Below are positions 4,997-50,069 of a stretch of DNA of 52,344 nt, in pieces. This DNA comes from Escherichia virus TH27: the sequence record MT446401.1, one strand, 5' to 3'. Position 1 is the stretch's first letter; each line of letters opens with the position of its first letter. The position numbers were made by a program, and so were the translations under genes. The notes under the pieces were generated by a model. The model was not told the origin of the DNA. It was given only the letters and a program-made list of their open reading frames with translations, and did not search any database.

Positions 4997-5800
4997 ATGA
5001 ACAGCATCAACCGTTATATCCATGTGTCAGTGCCAACAAGCGTCAATATTCACGGCGTCGGAATGCAATCCTGCGACGATGGAGCATGGGTATCCTACGC
5101 AATGCATAAAAAAGAAATCGAGTCCTTACAGGCACGTTTAAAGGCCTTAGAATCGACTCAAAAACATCAAATTTCTGCACCGTCGATTATCGCTGACCAT
5201 GTTGAGCAGGCAATCAAAGAAGCTGTAGGTAAGCTGGTGCACGAAGCATGTGAGCAATTGTTCAAGGATTTGCCTAAGTACAATGGCGATCCGTGTCACA
5301 GCACTGTCGATGCATTCGTGAATGAGCTTGCGGCTGGCCAAGGGAAAACCGTCGTAGATGATGGCGCAAAGTTTGATTACCTGACGAAAGATTCCAAGTT
5401 CACTTTCGGTAGCAATTTCGGTGAAGGCAATGCGCTTACCATGTCAACCACGAAAATGGAACCGCGAAGCGGCGGTTACGGTTATAGCAATCGTCACGCA
5501 TTGGCGGTGGGTGAATGTGAATCAGCACGCGATCGCAAGATGGCGGTTTGCTACCATGTTGGAGGCAATGAGTTTATCAATGGTTGCGAGTACGCGTATG
5601 AAATTGATGAATGCGAACCAGGATGTGAGCCGCGACTTATTCAAATCACGCAAGATGCCTTCTGCTCTGGATTAAAAGGTGATTACCGTTGGGAAGCCAG
5701 GAGAATTGGTAAGGTCATGAATGCCAAGGCAACGCTCGGTGACGCATACGCAATCATAAATCCTGATGGTGGCGTGGTGGCTCAGTTCTATATCAAATAG
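4997..5800 (+). CDS. Hypothetical protein (267 aa)
   Basis: RBS GAGG upstream; stop TAG starts downstream box. Confidence 0.8.
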   Translation: MNSINRYIHVSVPTSVNIHGVGMQSCDDGAWVSYAMHKKEIESLQARLKALESTQKHQISAPSIIADHVEQAIKEAVGKLVHEACEQLFKDLPKYNGDPCHSTVDAFVNELAAGQGKTVVDDGAKFDYLTKDSKFTFGSNFGEGNALTMSTTKMEPRSGGYGYSNRHALAVGECESARDRKMAVCYHVGGNEFINGCEYAYEIDECEPGCEPRLIQITQDAFCSGLKGDYRWEARRIGKVMNAKATLGDAYAIINPDGGVVAQFYIK

Positions 5801-5840
5801 CACTTTTTGTTAAAAGGGGATTCATCCTGACTGGTATAAT
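5798..5840 (+). promoter_or_regulatory. Palindromic box plus TG-g-TATAAT in hairpin
   Basis: Box 5798..5814; hexamer 5835..5840 in ggggatt/aatcccc inverted repeat. Confidence 0.55.
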
Positions 5841-5872: not shown

Positions 5873-6493
5873 ATGAACCAGCTTTACACCATGATTAAGC
5901 ATCACCTTGAAACGGTAGCAGTAAACAAGAAAGTTTACATCTTTGATTACGATGGCACTCTGTCAGACGGAACTCACCGCCTGCATAAGCTGCCGACCAA
6001 GGATTTACACCTCACTGAGTCATGGCTTGAATTTAACTCTCTGAGCAAGTTCGACACGCCATTCCAGGAAACGATTGACGTAATGAATGGCCTGTTTGCT
6101 TCCGGCGCTTTCATCATCGTGCTCACTGGTCGATCGGATGCAGTCGTTGAAGAATCAACGCAGTGGCTGTATGATGCGCGCGCCAATTACAACGTTCTGG
6201 TCATGCGCCAGGCTGATGATAACCGCAAGGATACGATCATCAAGGAAGAGTTTTTACGATACATTGGATTGCACCGCATCACCGCAGCGTGGGATGATAG
6301 CCCAAATGTTATTGCGCACTTCCGAAGCCTCGGCATCACTACCTATCAGGTGTGTGACTATGGCGATAAGCTCCACGCTGGCGTAGGATCGCATGGAGTT
6401 CAGCACAAAAATGAGTGCAAACACGAATGGGAATCATTCGATGATTATGGCGTCAAATGCCGAAAATGTGGAAAAATTGAGGAGATTGAGTAA
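5873..6493 (+). CDS. HAD-superfamily phosphatase (206 aa), polynucleotide 3'-phosphatase-like
   Basis: HAD motif I DxDGT (IFDYDGTLSDG) near N-terminus; RBS AAAGGAAG; immediately followed by kinase gene. Confidence 0.75.
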   Translation: MNQLYTMIKHHLETVAVNKKVYIFDYDGTLSDGTHRLHKLPTKDLHLTESWLEFNSLSKFDTPFQETIDVMNGLFASGAFIIVLTGRSDAVVEESTQWLYDARANYNVLVMRQADDNRKDTIIKEEFLRYIGLHRITAAWDDSPNVIAHFRSLGITTYQVCDYGDKLHAGVGSHGVQHKNECKHEWESFDDYGVKCRKCGKIEEIE

Positions 6494-7114
6494 ATGTCAA
6501 AGATTATCATTCTAAACGGCCCTGCTGGAGTAGGTAAAGACACTATCGGCAATGCACTGGTAGCAGATTACAACTGCATCCCTACCAGCTTCAAACGTCC
6601 GATGTTTGAGATTGCAGCATCCATCCTTGGGGCCAGGGCTTTTTCAAAGTTCATCACAGCATACGACGACCGCGATCAGAAAGAGCAGCCTCAGAGCTTT
6701 CTCGGTGGCAAGACCTGTCGTGAGTTCATGATCTGGATTAGCGAAACAGTGGTCAAGCCGCTTTTTGGCAATCAGCAGTTCGGCAAATTGATGAGCGAAC
6801 ATATCCAGCTGTGTGATGAAGGCTTCTGCTTTGTGTGTACTGATGGCGGCTTCCCTGATGAAGTGATCAGGCTCGTTGAAGATGGTCACAATGTTACCCT
6901 GGTCCGCCTGTTCATGGATGGCAAGACTTTCGCGGGAGATAGCCGTAATTACATCCGCATCAAGGAATCGCACTTCCCTGATTACAAGAAATATAACGAG
7001 CATGATGTGCATCTGGTAAATGGTGATGTTGATGATGGCGTCCTTAAAGTAGTTCGCGCTTGCTTGGTTAGTCCTTCAATGGATGATGATTGGGCCGACG
7101 ATATTCCTTGGTAA
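6494..7114 (+). CDS. P-loop kinase (206 aa), polynucleotide or nucleotide kinase-like, with acidic DDDWADDIPW C-terminus
   Basis: Walker A GPAGVGKDT at residues 9-17; start 1 nt after phosphatase stop; SSB-tail-like C-terminus. Confidence 0.75.
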   Translation: MSKIIILNGPAGVGKDTIGNALVADYNCIPTSFKRPMFEIAASILGARAFSKFITAYDDRDQKEQPQSFLGGKTCREFMIWISETVVKPLFGNQQFGKLMSEHIQLCDEGFCFVCTDGGFPDEVIRLVEDGHNVTLVRLFMDGKTFAGDSRNYIRIKESHFPDYKKYNEHDVHLVNGDVDDGVLKVVRACLVSPSMDDDWADDIPW

Positions 7115-7115
7115 A

Positions 7116-7158
7116 TAGCACGAATTGCTAAACCCGCTCCGGCGGGTTTTGTTATAGT
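7116..7158 (+). promoter_or_regulatory. Palindromic box TAGCACGAATTGCTAAA plus TG-t-TATAGT
   Basis: Box 7116..7132, 20-nt gap, hexamer 7153..7158. Confidence 0.5.
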
Positions 7159-7187
7159 TAGTTCACACCAAACGAGAGGAAAGCAAA

Positions 7188-30716: not shown

Positions 30717-30756
30717 ACTATACACCAACCATTAATTTAGTTTTAGCAATTCGTGC
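30717..30756 (-). promoter_or_regulatory. Palindromic box plus TATAGT (- strand) with CATCGAAACGAA leader
   Basis: Box 30742..30756, hexamer complement 30717..30722, leader 30700..30711; overlaps end of Rha-like gene. Confidence 0.5.
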
Positions 30757-31361
30757 GTTTTACCCGTCAGTGCGATAATTGTATCTTTCGATACCTCCAG
30801 CTTCATTTGTAATCCTTCGCATTGAGCCTGATATGAATACACGTTTTCCTGCGACTCATAATATCTATTGTTTTCGATTCGAATATTAGCCACCAAATCG
30901 TCGATTTGAGAGCCAGAACCTTCAGACTCTAGAATCTTATCAAGTACCTTGCTTTGCGCGTAGTACAGGTCTTCTATGCGGTGCTGCGCTGAAATGGCTC
31001 TATACTTCTGTTGGTGCTCATCAATAACCTCGTCAATTGAAACCATTTTGGAGTTGTGAGATTTAAGAACATTAACTTCATGCTCAAGCGACTTTATTTT
31101 CTGGATCATCTTCATTCTGATTTTTGCGCTGTATTTTGCAACAAGGCATAGCGTGTGATCCTTATCCAGAATGGCTACGTTATGCATCTTTCCTTTATGA
31201 TATTCTTGCTCCTCAAATTGAGGAACAAGGTTTTCTCCATATAAATCAACATACATAGCATTGACATCCCTTATAATGTTGTCGTGACGAACTCCTGTAA
31301 TCTTGGCAATCTCAAGGCTGGTCATGGTCATTTCTTCGTTTGTGATGGTTAATTCGTTCAT
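30732..31361 (-). CDS. Rha-family phage regulatory protein (209 aa)
   Basis: N-terminal [19 protein letters not shown] segment characteristic of Rha-type regulators; RBS GGAG. Confidence 0.7.
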
Positions 31362-34166: not shown

Positions 34167-34589
34167 ATGCCACACGTAATCACTGGTCAGATCCGTAAAG
34201 CACCTTTTACCAAAGAAGGCAGTAACAACAACGGGCGCTGGAAAATGTACGCCGTTGAACTGTCAGAACGCATGAAGATTCGCAATCAGCAGGGCGAGGA
34301 TGAGACGGTTTACAGCAACTACCGCGCCACGTTCTTCGCAAAAGAAAACGTTATGCAGTGGTATGATGAAGCATTCCAGGAAGGTAAGGTTGTATCAATT
34401 TCTGCCGACACTCTTCACTTGGCGTCACGCCAGGGTAATGATGGCACTGTGTATGTAACAGCTGAAATGATCAGGCCTCAGTTGCAATTCAGCCAGCGTG
34501 AGACGTCGCAACAGCGACAGCAGCCACAACAACAACAAAGACAGCAACCGCAGCAACAAAGCCAGTTCGATGACGATATTCCTTTCTGA
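34167..34589 (+). CDS. ssb: Single-stranded DNA-binding protein (140 aa)
   Basis: Gln-rich linker and C-terminal DDDIPF, identical to the bacterial SSB acidic tip. Confidence 0.85.
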   Translation: MPHVITGQIRKAPFTKEGSNNNGRWKMYAVELSERMKIRNQQGEDETVYSNYRATFFAKENVMQWYDEAFQEGKVVSISADTLHLASRQGNDGTVYVTAEMIRPQLQFSQRETSQQRQQPQQQQRQQPQQQSQFDDDIPF

Positions 34590-38491: not shown

Positions 38492-40594
38492 ATGGCTATG
38501 CGCATTAAATCCATTAAAAAACAGATAGAAGAACTTGGCCCGCAGAAGATCAAAGAGATTCAGGATAAATTCACGTTCGGTGACATGGTTCCTTATGAAT
38601 ATCAATGCGTGATGTATGATGAGATCGGAAAGCGCATTGCTCGTTATAAGCACCCATTCATCGTCAAGGCGTCGGTGTCGGCAGGTAAAACAATCGGCTT
38701 TGCCATGATCGCATCTCGCGTAAAAGAGATGGGCCTTTCGATGATGATACTGGCGCGCCAGGGCGACATTGTTGCTCAGGATAGTGAAGAAATCTCAAAC
38801 TTCGGCGTTCCTAACTCAGTTTATTGCGCTGGCCTGAACACGAAATCAGCTTACTTTCCCATCGTTGTAGGCTCGGAGGGTTCGGTTGCAAACGGTCTGT
38901 TTAAGGCGCTTGGTGATTTTACACCTATGGTGCTGGGAATTGATGAATGTCACCAGGTGGATTGGGAAGACCTTGCCGCCGCCATCGACAACGAAGAAAC
39001 GATCGAGATGATGCTCACTGAAAAAGATGAACGTGTGTTCGTTGACTACCCGAAAAACAGCGAAGGTTATGTCAATGGATACCTTGATGGTGTAGAGGTT
39101 GGCGTCCAAGTGATGGATAAGCAATTGCTGATAAGCAGGAAGACTGGCGAACCTGTTCTTGGCACCAAGCGAAGCCAGTACACGATAATCATCACTGAAT
39201 TGATGCGCCGATGCAAAGAGAAGAACGGGAAGGAATTGCGCATCTTCGGCATGACTGGTTCTGAGTTCCGAGGTACGGCCCCGATTGTTGTCGATAATCC
39301 TAAGTTGCCTGGATTCTGGCGTGAGCAGGTGACTAATATCGACACCAGCTACCTGATTGAGTTCGGCTCTGTTGTTCCAACCATCTTCGGAAGTGTCGGT
39401 GACGCTGGATATGATCTGGATGAGTTTAAGGCGTCCAGCCAGGATGGAACGGCAGACTTCGGTCAGAAAGAAATGAAGGCGATGGAGAAGAAAATCCATG
39501 ATAACGCCAGCATGACCAAGCGAATAATGGAGATGGTTGTCGAAGAAGCGAAGAAGCGAAACGGCGTACTGATTACGTGTTCAGGCCAGCGCCACTGCAA
39601 AGAGGCAGCGAGCTACCTTCCACCTGACGCAACCTATGAGATAATCACGGAGAAGACGAACACCAAAAAGCGACAAGCGATACTGGAGGCGGCGAACCGT
39701 GGCGAGATAAAATACATATTCCAGGTTGTGGCGCTAACCACTGGCGTTAACGTTCCGTTTTGGGATTTCTCTGTAATACTTCGCAAAATAGGATCGCTTA
39801 CACTGCTAATACAGTTACTTGGTCGTGGTATGCGATTGCTTAAGCCGTGGCAAAAAGCGATGGGAATGGTGAAAGAAGATCACCTGGTGTGGGATTTCGC
39901 TGGCACGATGGATGAGCTTGGTCAGCTTTACTTTGATCCGATTCTTGAAGAGGCTCAGTACCAGCGTCGCTTTGATGGCAAGAAAGAGCCGAAAAAATGC
40001 GAACTGTGCGGAACAGAGAACAGCTTTTACGCTCGCCGCTGCATTCATAAGGACGAGAGCGGCAATCGTTGTGAGTATTTCTGGAAGTCTCGCGTATGCG
40101 AAGACCAGGTTGATGATCGCACTGGCGAGGTGCTCGTTAAAGGATGTGGCGCTGAAAATGACGTAGTGGCTAGAATATGCCGTTGCTGCGACGTAAGCCT
40201 GAAAGATCCCAATGACAATCTGACTGGTAAGGCTTACACCAAAAACGACTGGTGCACAGTTAACAGTTTTGAAGTCACTCTGACACGTAATCAGACTGGC
40301 ATTCTTTATCGGTACGACCTGACAGACTCGGTGGGAGTTAACTTCATCGCTTATGAAAAGTTCTTCCCGCAGTCAACGGCACAGGTATGCCACACGATAT
40401 GGAAACAAAAAGGGGTATTACCTCACGTGCATGACAGTAAGATCGCAAAATTAATGGCGGCTTACAGAAGTGCCAAAATGATTTTAAACAACGCTCACCA
40501 CATAGCACATCCGGTGCGGGTAACTCACCGCAAGAATGCAAAAGGTGAGGATATTATCTCACGTAAGGATTTTGGATTGGACGGTAACTTATGA
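38492..40594 (+). CDS. SF2-type DNA helicase (700 aa) with C-terminal Cys-rich zinc-finger region
   Basis: Walker A SAGKT, DEAH-like GIDECHQ motif; C-terminal CxxC clusters. Confidence 0.8.
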   Translation: MAMRIKSIKKQIEELGPQKIKEIQDKFTFGDMVPYEYQCVMYDEIGKRIARYKHPFIVKASVSAGKTIGFAMIASRVKEMGLSMMILARQGDIVAQDSEEISNFGVPNSVYCAGLNTKSAYFPIVVGSEGSVANGLFKALGDFTPMVLGIDECHQVDWEDLAAAIDNEETIEMMLTEKDERVFVDYPKNSEGYVNGYLDGVEVGVQVMDKQLLISRKTGEPVLGTKRSQYTIIITELMRRCKEKNGKELRIFGMTGSEFRGTAPIVVDNPKLPGFWREQVTNIDTSYLIEFGSVVPTIFGSVGDAGYDLDEFKASSQDGTADFGQKEMKAMEKKIHDNASMTKRIMEMVVEEAKKRNGVLITCSGQRHCKEAASYLPPDATYEIITEKTNTKKRQAILEAANRGEIKYIFQVVALTTGVNVPFWDFSVILRKIGSLTLLIQLLGRGMRLLKPWQKAMGMVKEDHLVWDFAGTMDELGQLYFDPILEEAQYQRRFDGKKEPKKCELCGTENSFYARRCIHKDESGNRCEYFWKSRVCEDQVDDRTGEVLVKGCGAENDVVARICRCCDVSLKDPNDNLTGKAYTKNDWCTVNSFEVTLTRNQTGILYRYDLTDSVGVNFIAYEKFFPQSTAQVCHTIWKQKGVLPHVHDSKIAKLMAAYRSAKMILNNAHHIAHPVRVTHRKNAKGEDIISRKDFGLDGNL

Positions 40595-41019
40595 TTACAG
40601 ACAAAGGCGACTACCTGGAGTATTACACTCCAGACAAATCGGATACATGGACCGAAAAAAAACACCAGGTCGATTGCGTGACCTGGACTAATGTAAATCA
40701 CTCTTACCTTCTGTTCTGGCACACCGTTAATGAGGGCAAGAAAACTATGCATTCGGCGCTGGTTGACGCTCAGAGCGGATTATTGAAGGGTGTTAGTGAC
40801 TTTGTATTCCTTCTCGGCCCGTTCGGTAAATATCCTTTCGGGGCCATAGAATTAAAGCGGGTGAATAAGAGTGGGAAAGGCAAAGCATCACCAGTCAGCA
40901 AGGAGCAGAAAGATTTCCTTCGTCGCGTCCGTGAGCGTGGCGGGTTCGCGGCGGTGGCGTACGGCCAGGAGGAATATAAGAAGGCCGTTGCAGACATGCT
41001 GAATAGCACGAATTGCTAA
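40591..41019 (+). CDS. VRR-NUC domain nuclease (142 aa)
   Basis: GVSDFVFL...GAIELKR matches VRR-NUC (PD-(D/E)xK) signature; ends in box-encoded STNC-stop. Confidence 0.7.
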   Translation: MITDKGDYLEYYTPDKSDTWTEKKHQVDCVTWTNVNHSYLLFWHTVNEGKKTMHSALVDAQSGLLKGVSDFVFLLGPFGKYPFGAIELKRVNKSGKGKASPVSKEQKDFLRRVRERGGFAAVAYGQEEYKKAVADMLNSTNC

Positions 41020-49089: not shown

Positions 49090-49329
49090 TTATTTCACCT
49101 CGTCAAACGTTGCGATTCCAGGGATAAACATTCCGACCTTCCAGCCTGCGATAGCAATCCAGCCAGAATCGTGCTTGTGCGGTCGCTCAGCGCCATTAAT
49201 CACCCACTCGTTCGGGATTGTCTTACCGTTAATGATTAGCGGATCAGCGTCGTATACAGAGCCTTTTACGAATGGCGTTAAGACCTTCTTGTCGGTGCTG
49301 CTGATGCAATTTGTGCATATCACTTTCAT
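49090..49329 (-). CDS. Hypothetical protein (79 aa)
   Basis: ATGA coupling with upstream HNH gene. Confidence 0.65.
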   Translation of the reverse strand: MKVICTNCISSTDKKVLTPFVKGSVYDADPLIINGKTIPNEWVINGAERPHKHDSGWIAIAGWKVGMFIPGIATFDEVK

Positions 49330-49844
49330 AATTTACCGCCATGATTTTCGTTAAAGTTAAATATTTTATTTGCCTCATTCCTTGCGGCAACCGCATCATC
49401 AATGTTCTTAAATGTTCCAAGTTTGCGATTTACTCCATTACTAACAACTTGAGCAACAAAAACCTCATCTCTTTTACACCAATGTATTCCAGTGTGCCCG
49501 CTTTTATTGTCACTCCTGATTTTCTGGTTTTTTGCGTTACCTGATTTATCTGTCATTGATAGATTCTCTATCCTGTTATCATCCCTGATCTTGTTATTAT
49601 GGTCTATAACCTTGGTAACATCCGGTTGTCCTTTGAATATAAACCATACAATCCTATGAGCCGTGAATCTCTCGCCCTTGAATCCCACAAGCCTATATCC
49701 AGTGGCTTTACTTATGCAGCCACACTCCCTTCCTGTTCTATCTATTTGCTTTCTTGATGGTGGTGTTTTCTTCCAATAAAGCCTGCCGTCAATGTATTCA
49801 ATATAATCAACTATATCCTCCGGTATCTGCTTTGCTACTTTCAT
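49326..49844 (-). CDS. HNH-AP2 homing endonuclease (172 aa)
   Basis: YIDGRLYW..., HRIVW, IDHNNKIRDDNRIENL motifs; AT-rich; paralog of 33031 and 44399 genes. Confidence 0.75.
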   Translation of the reverse strand: MKVAKQIPEDIVDYIEYIDGRLYWKKTPPSRKQIDRTGRECGCISKATGYRLVGFKGERFTAHRIVWFIFKGQPDVTKVIDHNNKIRDDNRIENLSMTDKSGNAKNQKIRSDNKSGHTGIHWCKRDEVFVAQVVSNGVNRKLGTFKNIDDAVAARNEANKIFNFNENHGGKL

Positions 49845-49853
49845 GGTCTCGCC

Positions 49854-50069
49854 TTAGAACGGTATTCCGTCGTCAAATTTTAAGCGGTAGTCGAAGTCAT
49901 CCCCGATTCCGTCTACTGACTGGTTGCTTTCGCTTTCAAGATCCATATCCATAACGCCCAATGCGTCATCGAGTTCAATGCATCCGTAAGCAACCTTGAG
50001 CGCCCACTCTTCATTGAGTCCGGCTTTAAGTGCCGCGCGGTGGCGGCTCCAGAAATTATCTTGATGCAC
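49854..50069 (-). CDS. Small acidic protein (71 aa) ending in SSB-like tail FDDGIPF
   Basis: GTG start 3 nt after upstream stop with GGAG upstream; C-terminal DFDYRLKFDDGIPF-stop. Confidence 0.6.
   Translation of the reverse strand: MHQDNFWSRHRAALKAGLNEEWALKVAYGCIELDDALGVMDMDLESESNQSVDGIGDDFDYRLKFDDGIPF

Follow-up and report, generated by a model that had tools for sequence, protein, structure and literature searches.

The 52,344-nt genome of Escherichia virus TH27 (MT446401.1), analysed as a whole and called the window below, carries at positions 5873..7114 of its plus strand two abutting genes for a HAD phosphatase and a P-loop kinase, and the C-terminus of the kinase resembles the tip of SSB, the protein that binds single-stranded DNA. 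To judge from the sequence, this tail is most likely a docking peptide that would place the kinase at partners binding the SSB tip, and with moderate confidence we read the two genes as an early-operon module for salvage and end cleaning whose kinase is docked by its SSB-mimic tail. The HAD and kinase module itself is ordinary and already recognised in annotations, and a study of the Drexlerviridae notes the pair as ‘PNK + dNMP kinase’ and suggests an enhanced nucleotide supply (PMC13164509). It is the conserved and recurrent copy of the SSB tip on a nucleotide kinase that appears to be novel and undescribed in the literature that we searched, which contained nothing relevant on SSB-tip mimics on non-SSB phage proteins, nor on the strings DDIPW or DIPW.

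The octapeptide D199-W-A-D-D-I-P-W206 (7088..7111, plus strand) closes the kinase sequence, which ends in ...SMDDDWADDIPW, and forms the last part of an extension (residues 191-206) without ordered structure; the per-residue model confidence (pLDDT) is below 50 for residues 198-206, which are thus predicted to be disordered. Kinase relatives without a tail stop right after the last helix (about residue 190), and members of the window clade have 12-19 residues more. PW is the ending of 82 of the 87 full-length cluster representatives from the window clade and its sister group, and of the five others, one differs by a single substitution (ITW) and four end in unrelated sequence, in some cases resembling contig-end artefacts. 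In 86 tailed kinases, the terminal W and the P before it are present without exception (86/86 each), I or L is found two residues before the end in 84, D at position -4 in 81 and W at position -6 in 62, while the linker ahead of the tip varies freely and the last 10 residues occur as 37 distinct strings. The conserved residues of the tail also differ in their synonymous codons among the sequences. When the kinases were grouped by the unweighted pair group method with arithmetic mean on the identity of their cores, the tail was found in three groups, namely the window clade, a sister group (P0091-95 and P0241) with 51-58% core identity, and a distant group (NBD2 and P0247) with 41-44%. Kinases of T1, TLS, Rtp-like and other lineages (∼40-53% identity) have no tail. 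Hence the ending that the preliminary description had reported is a property of orthologues within the clade but not of these distant ones, and because the latter lack the whole tail, it is an add-on and not a feature of the kinase family. Its absence from most of the wider kinase family would also suit a non-functional accident at the 3′-end of the gene, such as a recombination remnant of an ssb gene. Such an origin is extremely improbable, for all 86 tailed sequences have retained the P and W across 37 distinct strings, and separate lineages whose cores are only 41-58% identical preserve the tail through synonymous changes, so that the tailed sequences are not one recent clone. The kinase gene of phage DTL (L005:10235-10618) is apparently truncated or frameshifted and encodes 127 aa without the P-loop; its ending, IPR instead of IPW, is consistent with decay of a disabled gene, and no HAD gene was found within 10 kb of this remnant.

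Two further proteins of the window share this type of end. The phage SSB (34167..34589, plus strand; phrog_44 SSB, 2.7e-25) is 140 aa long, has a Q-rich linker and closes with the tip FDDDIPF (34566..34586), and each of six orthologues ends in [DE]xIPF. The other is a 71-aa protein (49854..50069, minus strand; phrog_9085/9323) in which a conserved helical N-terminal part of ∼45 aa and a hypervariable linker precede the tip FDDGIPF. In this family the linkers are acidic or Cys-rich (CxC...CxxC). Relatives were found by tblastn in 435 phage records. Among 22 viral loci, 21 orthologues are intact, of which 15 have the ending IPF, IPW or FPF and six have IPFW, despite very different linkers. Aligned by their last eight residues, the tips of the kinase (D-W-A-D-D-I-P-W), of the phage SSB (Q-F-D-D-D-I-P-F), of the 71-aa protein (K-F-D-D-G-I-P-F) and of the E. 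coli SSB C-terminus (SSB-Ct; D-F-D-D-D-I-P-F, PMC10143822) all have aromatics at two matching positions, and on ExoI and RecO the proximal segment DFDD of SSB-Ct and its distal segment DIPF each touch a hot spot (PMC10143822). The kinase tail is like SSB-Ct in that an acidic run and I-P-aromatic stand at the extreme C-terminus after a disordered linker. It is unlike SSB-Ct in that both of its aromatics are Trp rather than Phe, that the linker has ∼10 residues rather than tens, and that its carrier is a monomeric-type metabolic P-loop kinase and not an ssDNA-binding protein, which makes the motif a mimic.

We scanned 518 open reading frames (ORFs) of at least 30 aa from all six frames of the window for ends with an acidic stretch followed by [IVLM]P[FWY], and the kinase (DDIPW), the SSB (FDDDIPF) and the 71-aa protein (FDDGIPF) were the only plausible genes with an acidic-IP[F/W] end, which are the same three proteins that had been singled out from the sequence beforehand. 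Related loci provided a background of 10,151 ORFs with a minimum length of 40 aa, 13 of which close with [IL]P[FW], and ∼10 of these are orthologues of the kinase or members of the 71-aa family, which leaves a chance rate of ∼3 per 10,000 ORFs; three such ends in one genome are therefore far beyond chance. Since the acidic IP[F/W] end is common to the three proteins and evolutionarily conserved, a common docking function can reasonably be inferred. A neat division of IPW and IPF between the proteins of each genome was considered and rejected, as in T1-type phages it is the 71-aa protein that ends in IPW (DDDDYIPW) and the kinase is tail-less.

To see how far the exact string extends beyond this genome, the viral sequences of IMG/VR were scanned for back-translated D-D-I-P-W-TAA, which yielded at least 120 stretches (loci L113-L232). 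Among the matches listed, DDIPW closes an ORF of at least 60 aa in 114 of 118 in-frame viral occurrences, and most of the annotatable carriers belong to the ssDNA-binding proteins, in several unrelated folds, including classical OB SSBs, gp2.5-like and Enc34-type proteins and other PHROG SSB families. Carriers that are not SSBs, again among the matches listed, comprise an SF2 helicase (ResIII + Helicase_C), an AAA_5/CbbQ ATPase, DUF6511 and Pam3 gp34-like proteins and many small unknown proteins, and a single kinase, that of NBD2. Example loci are L143:5045-6850, L218:4178-5371, L119:7203-8027 and L163:7885-8352. On account of these carriers, we regard DDIPW as a natural variant of the SSB tip that is occasionally grafted onto non-SSB enzymes, and the SSB tip resembles an address label that can be carried from protein to protein.

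The same distribution bears on another use of the tip, in which the ends of the kinase and the 71-aa protein would act as decoys that compete with host SSB for SSB-interacting proteins, switching off host repair, restart or nuclease functions or blunting a defence that reads the SSB tip, with the kinase activity being incidental. The 71-aa protein consists of little beyond a small domain and the tip and is conserved in 435 phage records, and multiple tip copies per genome would raise the concentration of competitor; this protein could serve as an adaptor or a decoy for SSB-tip receptors. Yet where a dedicated small protein exists, an enzyme has no obvious need to bear the tip too, Trp is used consistently by the kinase tail whereas the SSB has Phe, and the non-SSB carriers elsewhere are DNA-acting enzymes (helicase, AAA ATPase), which fit recruitment better than inhibition. 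We consider the decoy explanation distinctly unlikely.

Sequence and predicted fold identify the protein that carries this tail (6494..7114, plus strand, 206 aa) as a nucleotide kinase of the T4 gp1 type and not of the Pnk type, and from its family membership we take deoxynucleoside monophosphates (dNMPs) as the probable substrate. It matches PHROG 139 (‘deoxynucleoside monophosphate kinase’) with E = 1.2e-44 over profile positions 82-259, and T4 gp1, which has been assayed and crystallised, matches the same profile at positions 83-261 with 1.9e-65. It has a predicted gp1-like fold, and its named neighbours in the BFVD viral structure library are almost all dNMP kinases. The P-loop G9-PAGVGKDT17 (6518..6544, plus strand) has the G-K-D-T form, as in T4 gp1. 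Searches of Pfam, NCBIfam and PDB sequences with the kinase returned the P-loop only, and against PDB sequences both the single sequence and a 17-sequence profile gave only P-loop noise, which made the fold comparison necessary. The kinase showed no Pnk-type 5′-OH kinase domain homologous to the N-domain of T4 Pnk. Compared with T4 gp1 (PDB 1DEK), it has ∼14% identity and is 35 residues shorter; moreover, T4 gp1 lacks an SSB-tip-like tail, whereas the window kinase has one and shares an operon, and elsewhere a polypeptide, with a 3′-phosphatase. The kinase family is large, with 3,955 clusters at 50% identity and members in 1,458 phage records.

A kinase core of this type, with its many invariant Arg and Lys residues, could also be thought to bind the tail itself. 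In SSB and T7 gp2.5 the tail occupies the DNA-binding cleft of its own protein, and an acidic and flexible tail might similarly fold back and autoinhibit the kinase by binding to its basic nucleotide-binding or LID surface. The same tip, however, occurs on two unrelated proteins of this genome and on many unrelated viral ones, which argues for a common external receptor, and charge mimicry alone would not need a precise I-P-aromatic ending. Intramolecular regulation is therefore very improbable.

The first gene (5873..6493, plus strand, 206 aa) encodes a stand-alone phosphatase which, by its sequence, is a member of the PNKP family of HAD phosphatases, with predicted 3′-phosphatase activity on ends. 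It matches Pfam HAD_PNKP with 2.8e-17 (63.6 bits, curated cut-off 27.6) and phrog_415 with 3.9e-62, and its only matches among PDB sequences, with the single sequence as well as with a profile, are Pnkp1 (4xrp) and the phosphatase domain of T4 Pnkp (1ltq, 5uj0). The same three structures rank first in a Foldseek search with its AlphaFold (AF2) model (pLDDT 82.6). Motif I, D25-Y-D27-G-T29 (5945..5959, plus strand), provides the nucleophile Asp and the general acid/base Asp, and D.DGT is present in 119 of 120 HAD homologues. An alignment of 17 diverse orthologues showed D25, D27, R36, R87, D116, K119, D141 and D142 to be invariant, and by the printed alignments to 1ltq/5uj0 and by spacing these are the counterparts of the essential residues of T4 Pnkp, which we take to be D165, D167, R176, R213, D254, K258 and D277/D278. 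The window protein thus shares with the phosphatase domain of T4 Pnkp (PseT) and with Capnocytophaga Pnkp1 the HAD_PNKP subfamily and all essential acyl-phosphatase residues. It differs from T4 Pnkp, a single polypeptide with the kinase at the N-terminus, in that it stands alone without a Pnk kinase domain, has an optional CHCC zinc-ribbon and no partner ligase found in the genome, and in that the window has two ORFs with the phosphatase first. The widespread ‘polynucleotide kinase’ annotation in Drexlerviridae should be corrected: the protein is a phosphatase only, and its neighbour is probably a nucleotide kinase and not a polynucleotide kinase.

The 120 closest HAD homologues are likewise all stand-alone proteins, of 157-245 aa. 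At the C-terminus of the window protein, comparison with orthologues and the model revealed a zinc-ribbon-like CHCC appendix, C182-x-H184...C196-x2-C199 (6410..6490, plus strand, residues 180-206), for which the model has three short strands at residues 186-204. The appendix is facultative, being absent from many 179-aa orthologues, different in sequence between clades and duplicated in P0145, P0151, P0169 and P0179. Yeast Tpp1 and plant ZDP are stand-alone DNA 3′-phosphatases, and ZDP combines zinc fingers with a HAD 3′-phosphatase. By description, the window protein is like both in being of PNKP type without a kinase domain, and like ZDP in adding a zinc-binding module, although these are eukaryotic DNA-repair enzymes and the type and position of their zinc module are unlike those of the window protein. 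A peptide ahead of the appendix, Y163-G-D-x2-H-x4-S173-H-G175-V (6359..6400, residues 163-176), is conserved across orthologues and has very low model confidence, and a related stretch is also retained in the HAD-kinase fusions described below. One possibility is that it docks onto a partner such as the kinase.

The two ORFs are 206 aa each and adjoin with 0 nt between them, the TAA stop of the HAD ORF directly abutting the ATG of the kinase, with a GAGGAG Shine-Dalgarno sequence 9 nt upstream of this ATG. A HAD homologue is found in 69 of 78 related viral loci with a kinase ORF, always upstream and on the same strand; the gap is between -4 and +4 nt in 24 loci and from 49 to ∼2,000 nt elsewhere. 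In addition, two divergent proteins, P0261 (403 aa) and P0268 (461 aa), are natural HAD-linker-kinase fusions with linkers of 60-110 aa, and their domain order, phosphatase and then kinase, is that of the genes in the window. The P0261 fusion occurs on three contigs of up to 60.7 kb in a phage context. Owing to the conserved synteny and the natural fusions, functional coupling of the HAD phosphatase and the kinase is well supported. At one fusion locus (L112:6001-7212, Logan ERR14657200, 60.7 kb), RdgC, NinH, a PAPS-reductase-like gene and a Dam methylase are nearby, and no ligase was found in the gene neighbourhood; both fusions also have a linker motif, F-x-G-P-E-L-H-G, in common. The preliminary description had taken the window genes for a polynucleotide kinase/phosphatase split into two polypeptides. 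Its coordinates and motifs (DxDGT in the HAD ORF and GPAGVGKDT in the kinase, 0 nt apart) proved exact, the phosphatase-then-kinase order recurs in the fusions, and the profile searches that it had called for assigned the HAD ORF to HAD_PNKP and phrog_415 and the kinase to the dNMP kinases of PHROG 139. Thus the coupling and the phosphatase half of that proposal stand, and the Pnk ancestry of the kinase does not, since the latter is of gp1 type.

The pair could still be a true end-healing pair if a gp1-like kinase had been recruited as a 5′-OH polynucleotide kinase that heals DNA or RNA ends together with the 3′-phosphatase, with sealing by a host ligase (LigA, or RtcB-independent routes) and with the tail bringing the kinase to SSB-coated gaps. 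Mammalian PNKP has the same phosphatase-kinase order as the fusions. The HAD protein is specifically of PNKP type, it is tightly paired or fused in that order, its optional zinc-ribbon hints at nucleic-acid binding, and a tail for DNA-associated docking would be fitting in an enzyme of repair. Nevertheless, the list of invariant residues of the kinase implies no invariant acidic residue after strand 2, where kinases with hydroxyl acceptors, T4 Pnk (Asp35) among them, have their general base, and T4 retains both gp1 and Pnk, which indicates that the two functions are not interchangeable there. A ligase is also lacking at the level of hidden Markov models (HMMs): as had been anticipated, none was recognised among the large ORFs of the window in PHROG/Pfam scans nor in the annotation of the close relative ETEP102, although small or novel ligases could escape such scans. 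Among the unassigned ORFs, only that at 4997..5800 (267 aa) has the size of a ligase, and it shows neither a family match nor a KxDG motif. On balance, we regard an end-healing function as rather unlikely.

The genomic setting gives the preferred reading, of a salvage and end-cleaning module with a docked kinase, its physiological frame. The 1.24-kb HAD and kinase region matches ∼18 Escherichia siphophage genomes of 46-52 kb at 79-93% nucleotide identity, among them BUCT-XGG-1, XT34, ETEP102, ESCO41, JeanPiccard and DTL, and because of these matches the window is regarded as a T1-like (Drexlerviridae) phage genome. PHROG/Pfam searches and the ETEP102 annotation provided its replication and recombination genes, namely an ExoVIII-like exonuclease, an Erf-like annealing protein, the SSB, a primase and two helicases, and further a VRR-NUC nuclease (40591..41019), a Dam methylase and an Mre11-like exonuclease. 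No DNA polymerase was found in PHROG/Pfam scans of the window, nor in the annotation of ETEP102. According to a reannotation of TLS (PMC11447400), T1 and TLS likewise lack apparent DNA polymerase genes, and they break down the host chromosome and use its nucleotides again. A Rha-domain regulatory protein (30732..31361, minus strand) and an HNH endonuclease (49326..49844, minus strand), the latter immediately adjoining the 71-aa gene, were also observed in this virulent T1-like genome.

The two genes look like a transcription unit of their own between a promoter-like site and a terminator-like hairpin. An extended -10 promoter-like element read from the sequence, TGgTATAAT (5832..5840, plus strand), lies 32 nt upstream of the HAD start; it has no -35 match and was unflagged by a two-hexamer promoter scan. 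Downstream of the kinase, a GC-rich hairpin followed by a T-run (7130..7159, plus strand) resembles an intrinsic terminator, and in ETEP102 a terminator is annotated at the equivalent relative position. Directly upstream of the HAD gene is the orphan ORF 4997..5800 (plus strand), which has no Pfam, PHROG or PDB match, is present in only 15 phage records, largely those with a DNA-level match to the kinase of the window, and corresponds to two hypothetical proteins in ETEP102. It was considered as a clade-specific gene that co-varies with the tail and rejected as a required partner, as it is absent from the tailed NBD2.

From these findings we infer what the two enzymes act on, how salvage would work, and what the tail binds and serves. 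The region would form a self-contained early operon of promoter, HAD, kinase and terminator. The HAD phosphatase would take 3′-phosphates off DNA ends or nucleotides, and by unblocking 3′-phosphorylated termini or bisphosphates it would either allow exonucleases to release 5′-dNMPs or unblock priming. The kinase would then turn 5′-dNMPs into deoxynucleoside diphosphates (dNDPs), which host Ndk would convert to deoxynucleoside triphosphates (dNTPs), and the products would be fed back to replication. The disordered DWADDIPW tail, gained in this clade, would dock the kinase on proteins with an SSB-tip pocket, and docking would put dNDP production where ssDNA is made or degraded. Candidate receptors in the host are chi of the clamp loader, ExoI, RecJ and PriA, and candidates of the phage are Erf, the exonuclease, the primase and the helicases. 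The chi subunit is attractive because the phage must use host Pol III, and ExoI and RecJ are attractive because they are SSB partners that release dNMP. In a phage without its own polymerase, the receptor probably belongs to the host or to the recombination proteins of the phage. In T4, the dNTP synthetase complex is linked to the replisome via gp32, and the SSB tail was proposed to bind enzymes; in T7, gp4 and gp2.5 have common acidic C-termini that end in Phe and bind T7 DNA polymerase. The window system would resemble both in that enzymes are held at the fork through acidic tails of SSB type, and it would differ from the T4 complex in that the enzyme itself bears the tail. A more specific proposal, that the tail couples the kinase, and via its operon partner also the 3′-phosphatase, to SSB-tip receptors such as chi, ExoI and RecJ, and that the SSB tip acts as a portable label, is put forward tentatively, as a possibility that we hold to be somewhat short of probable.

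Several observations weigh against the salvage reading with a docked kinase. Phages of T1, TLS and Rtp type manage without the tail, so that the module can dispense with it. Since the kinase invariably ends in Trp and the SSB invariably in Phe, the two tails may have different partners. The gp1 assignment is less complete in direct comparison, as hhalign of the kinase alignment against T4 gp1 covered only the first 37 residues, and a broader family profile, although collinear with gp1 at the P-loop, the R76 region, D117 and R138, scored a weak 17 bits. Furthermore, no nuclease that leaves 3′-phosphates was identified in the genome as a source of substrate for the phosphatase, and a PNKP-type phosphatase that is tightly linked or fused to a kinase follows the logic of end healing, which means that a polynucleotide acceptor may be possible.

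Fork tethering of DNA-precursor enzymes has been debated since the ‘dNTP synthetase complex’ of T4 was proposed, and the contacts have never been reduced to a simple motif. With only eight residues, on a small kinase, the tail provides a clean and testable handle on precursor channeling, and if the docking proposed here is true, it would represent substrate channeling at the fork, for DNA precursors, in a minimal and genetically tractable form. It would also mean that phages graft the SSB tip onto unrelated enzymes, including a kinase, an SF2 helicase, an AAA ATPase and small unknown proteins. If the tail binds SSB-tip pockets, phages would exploit the SSB interaction hub beyond their own SSBs, which would bear on the way in which phages lacking a polymerase gain control of the replisome of their host, and on antibacterials directed at the SSB tip.

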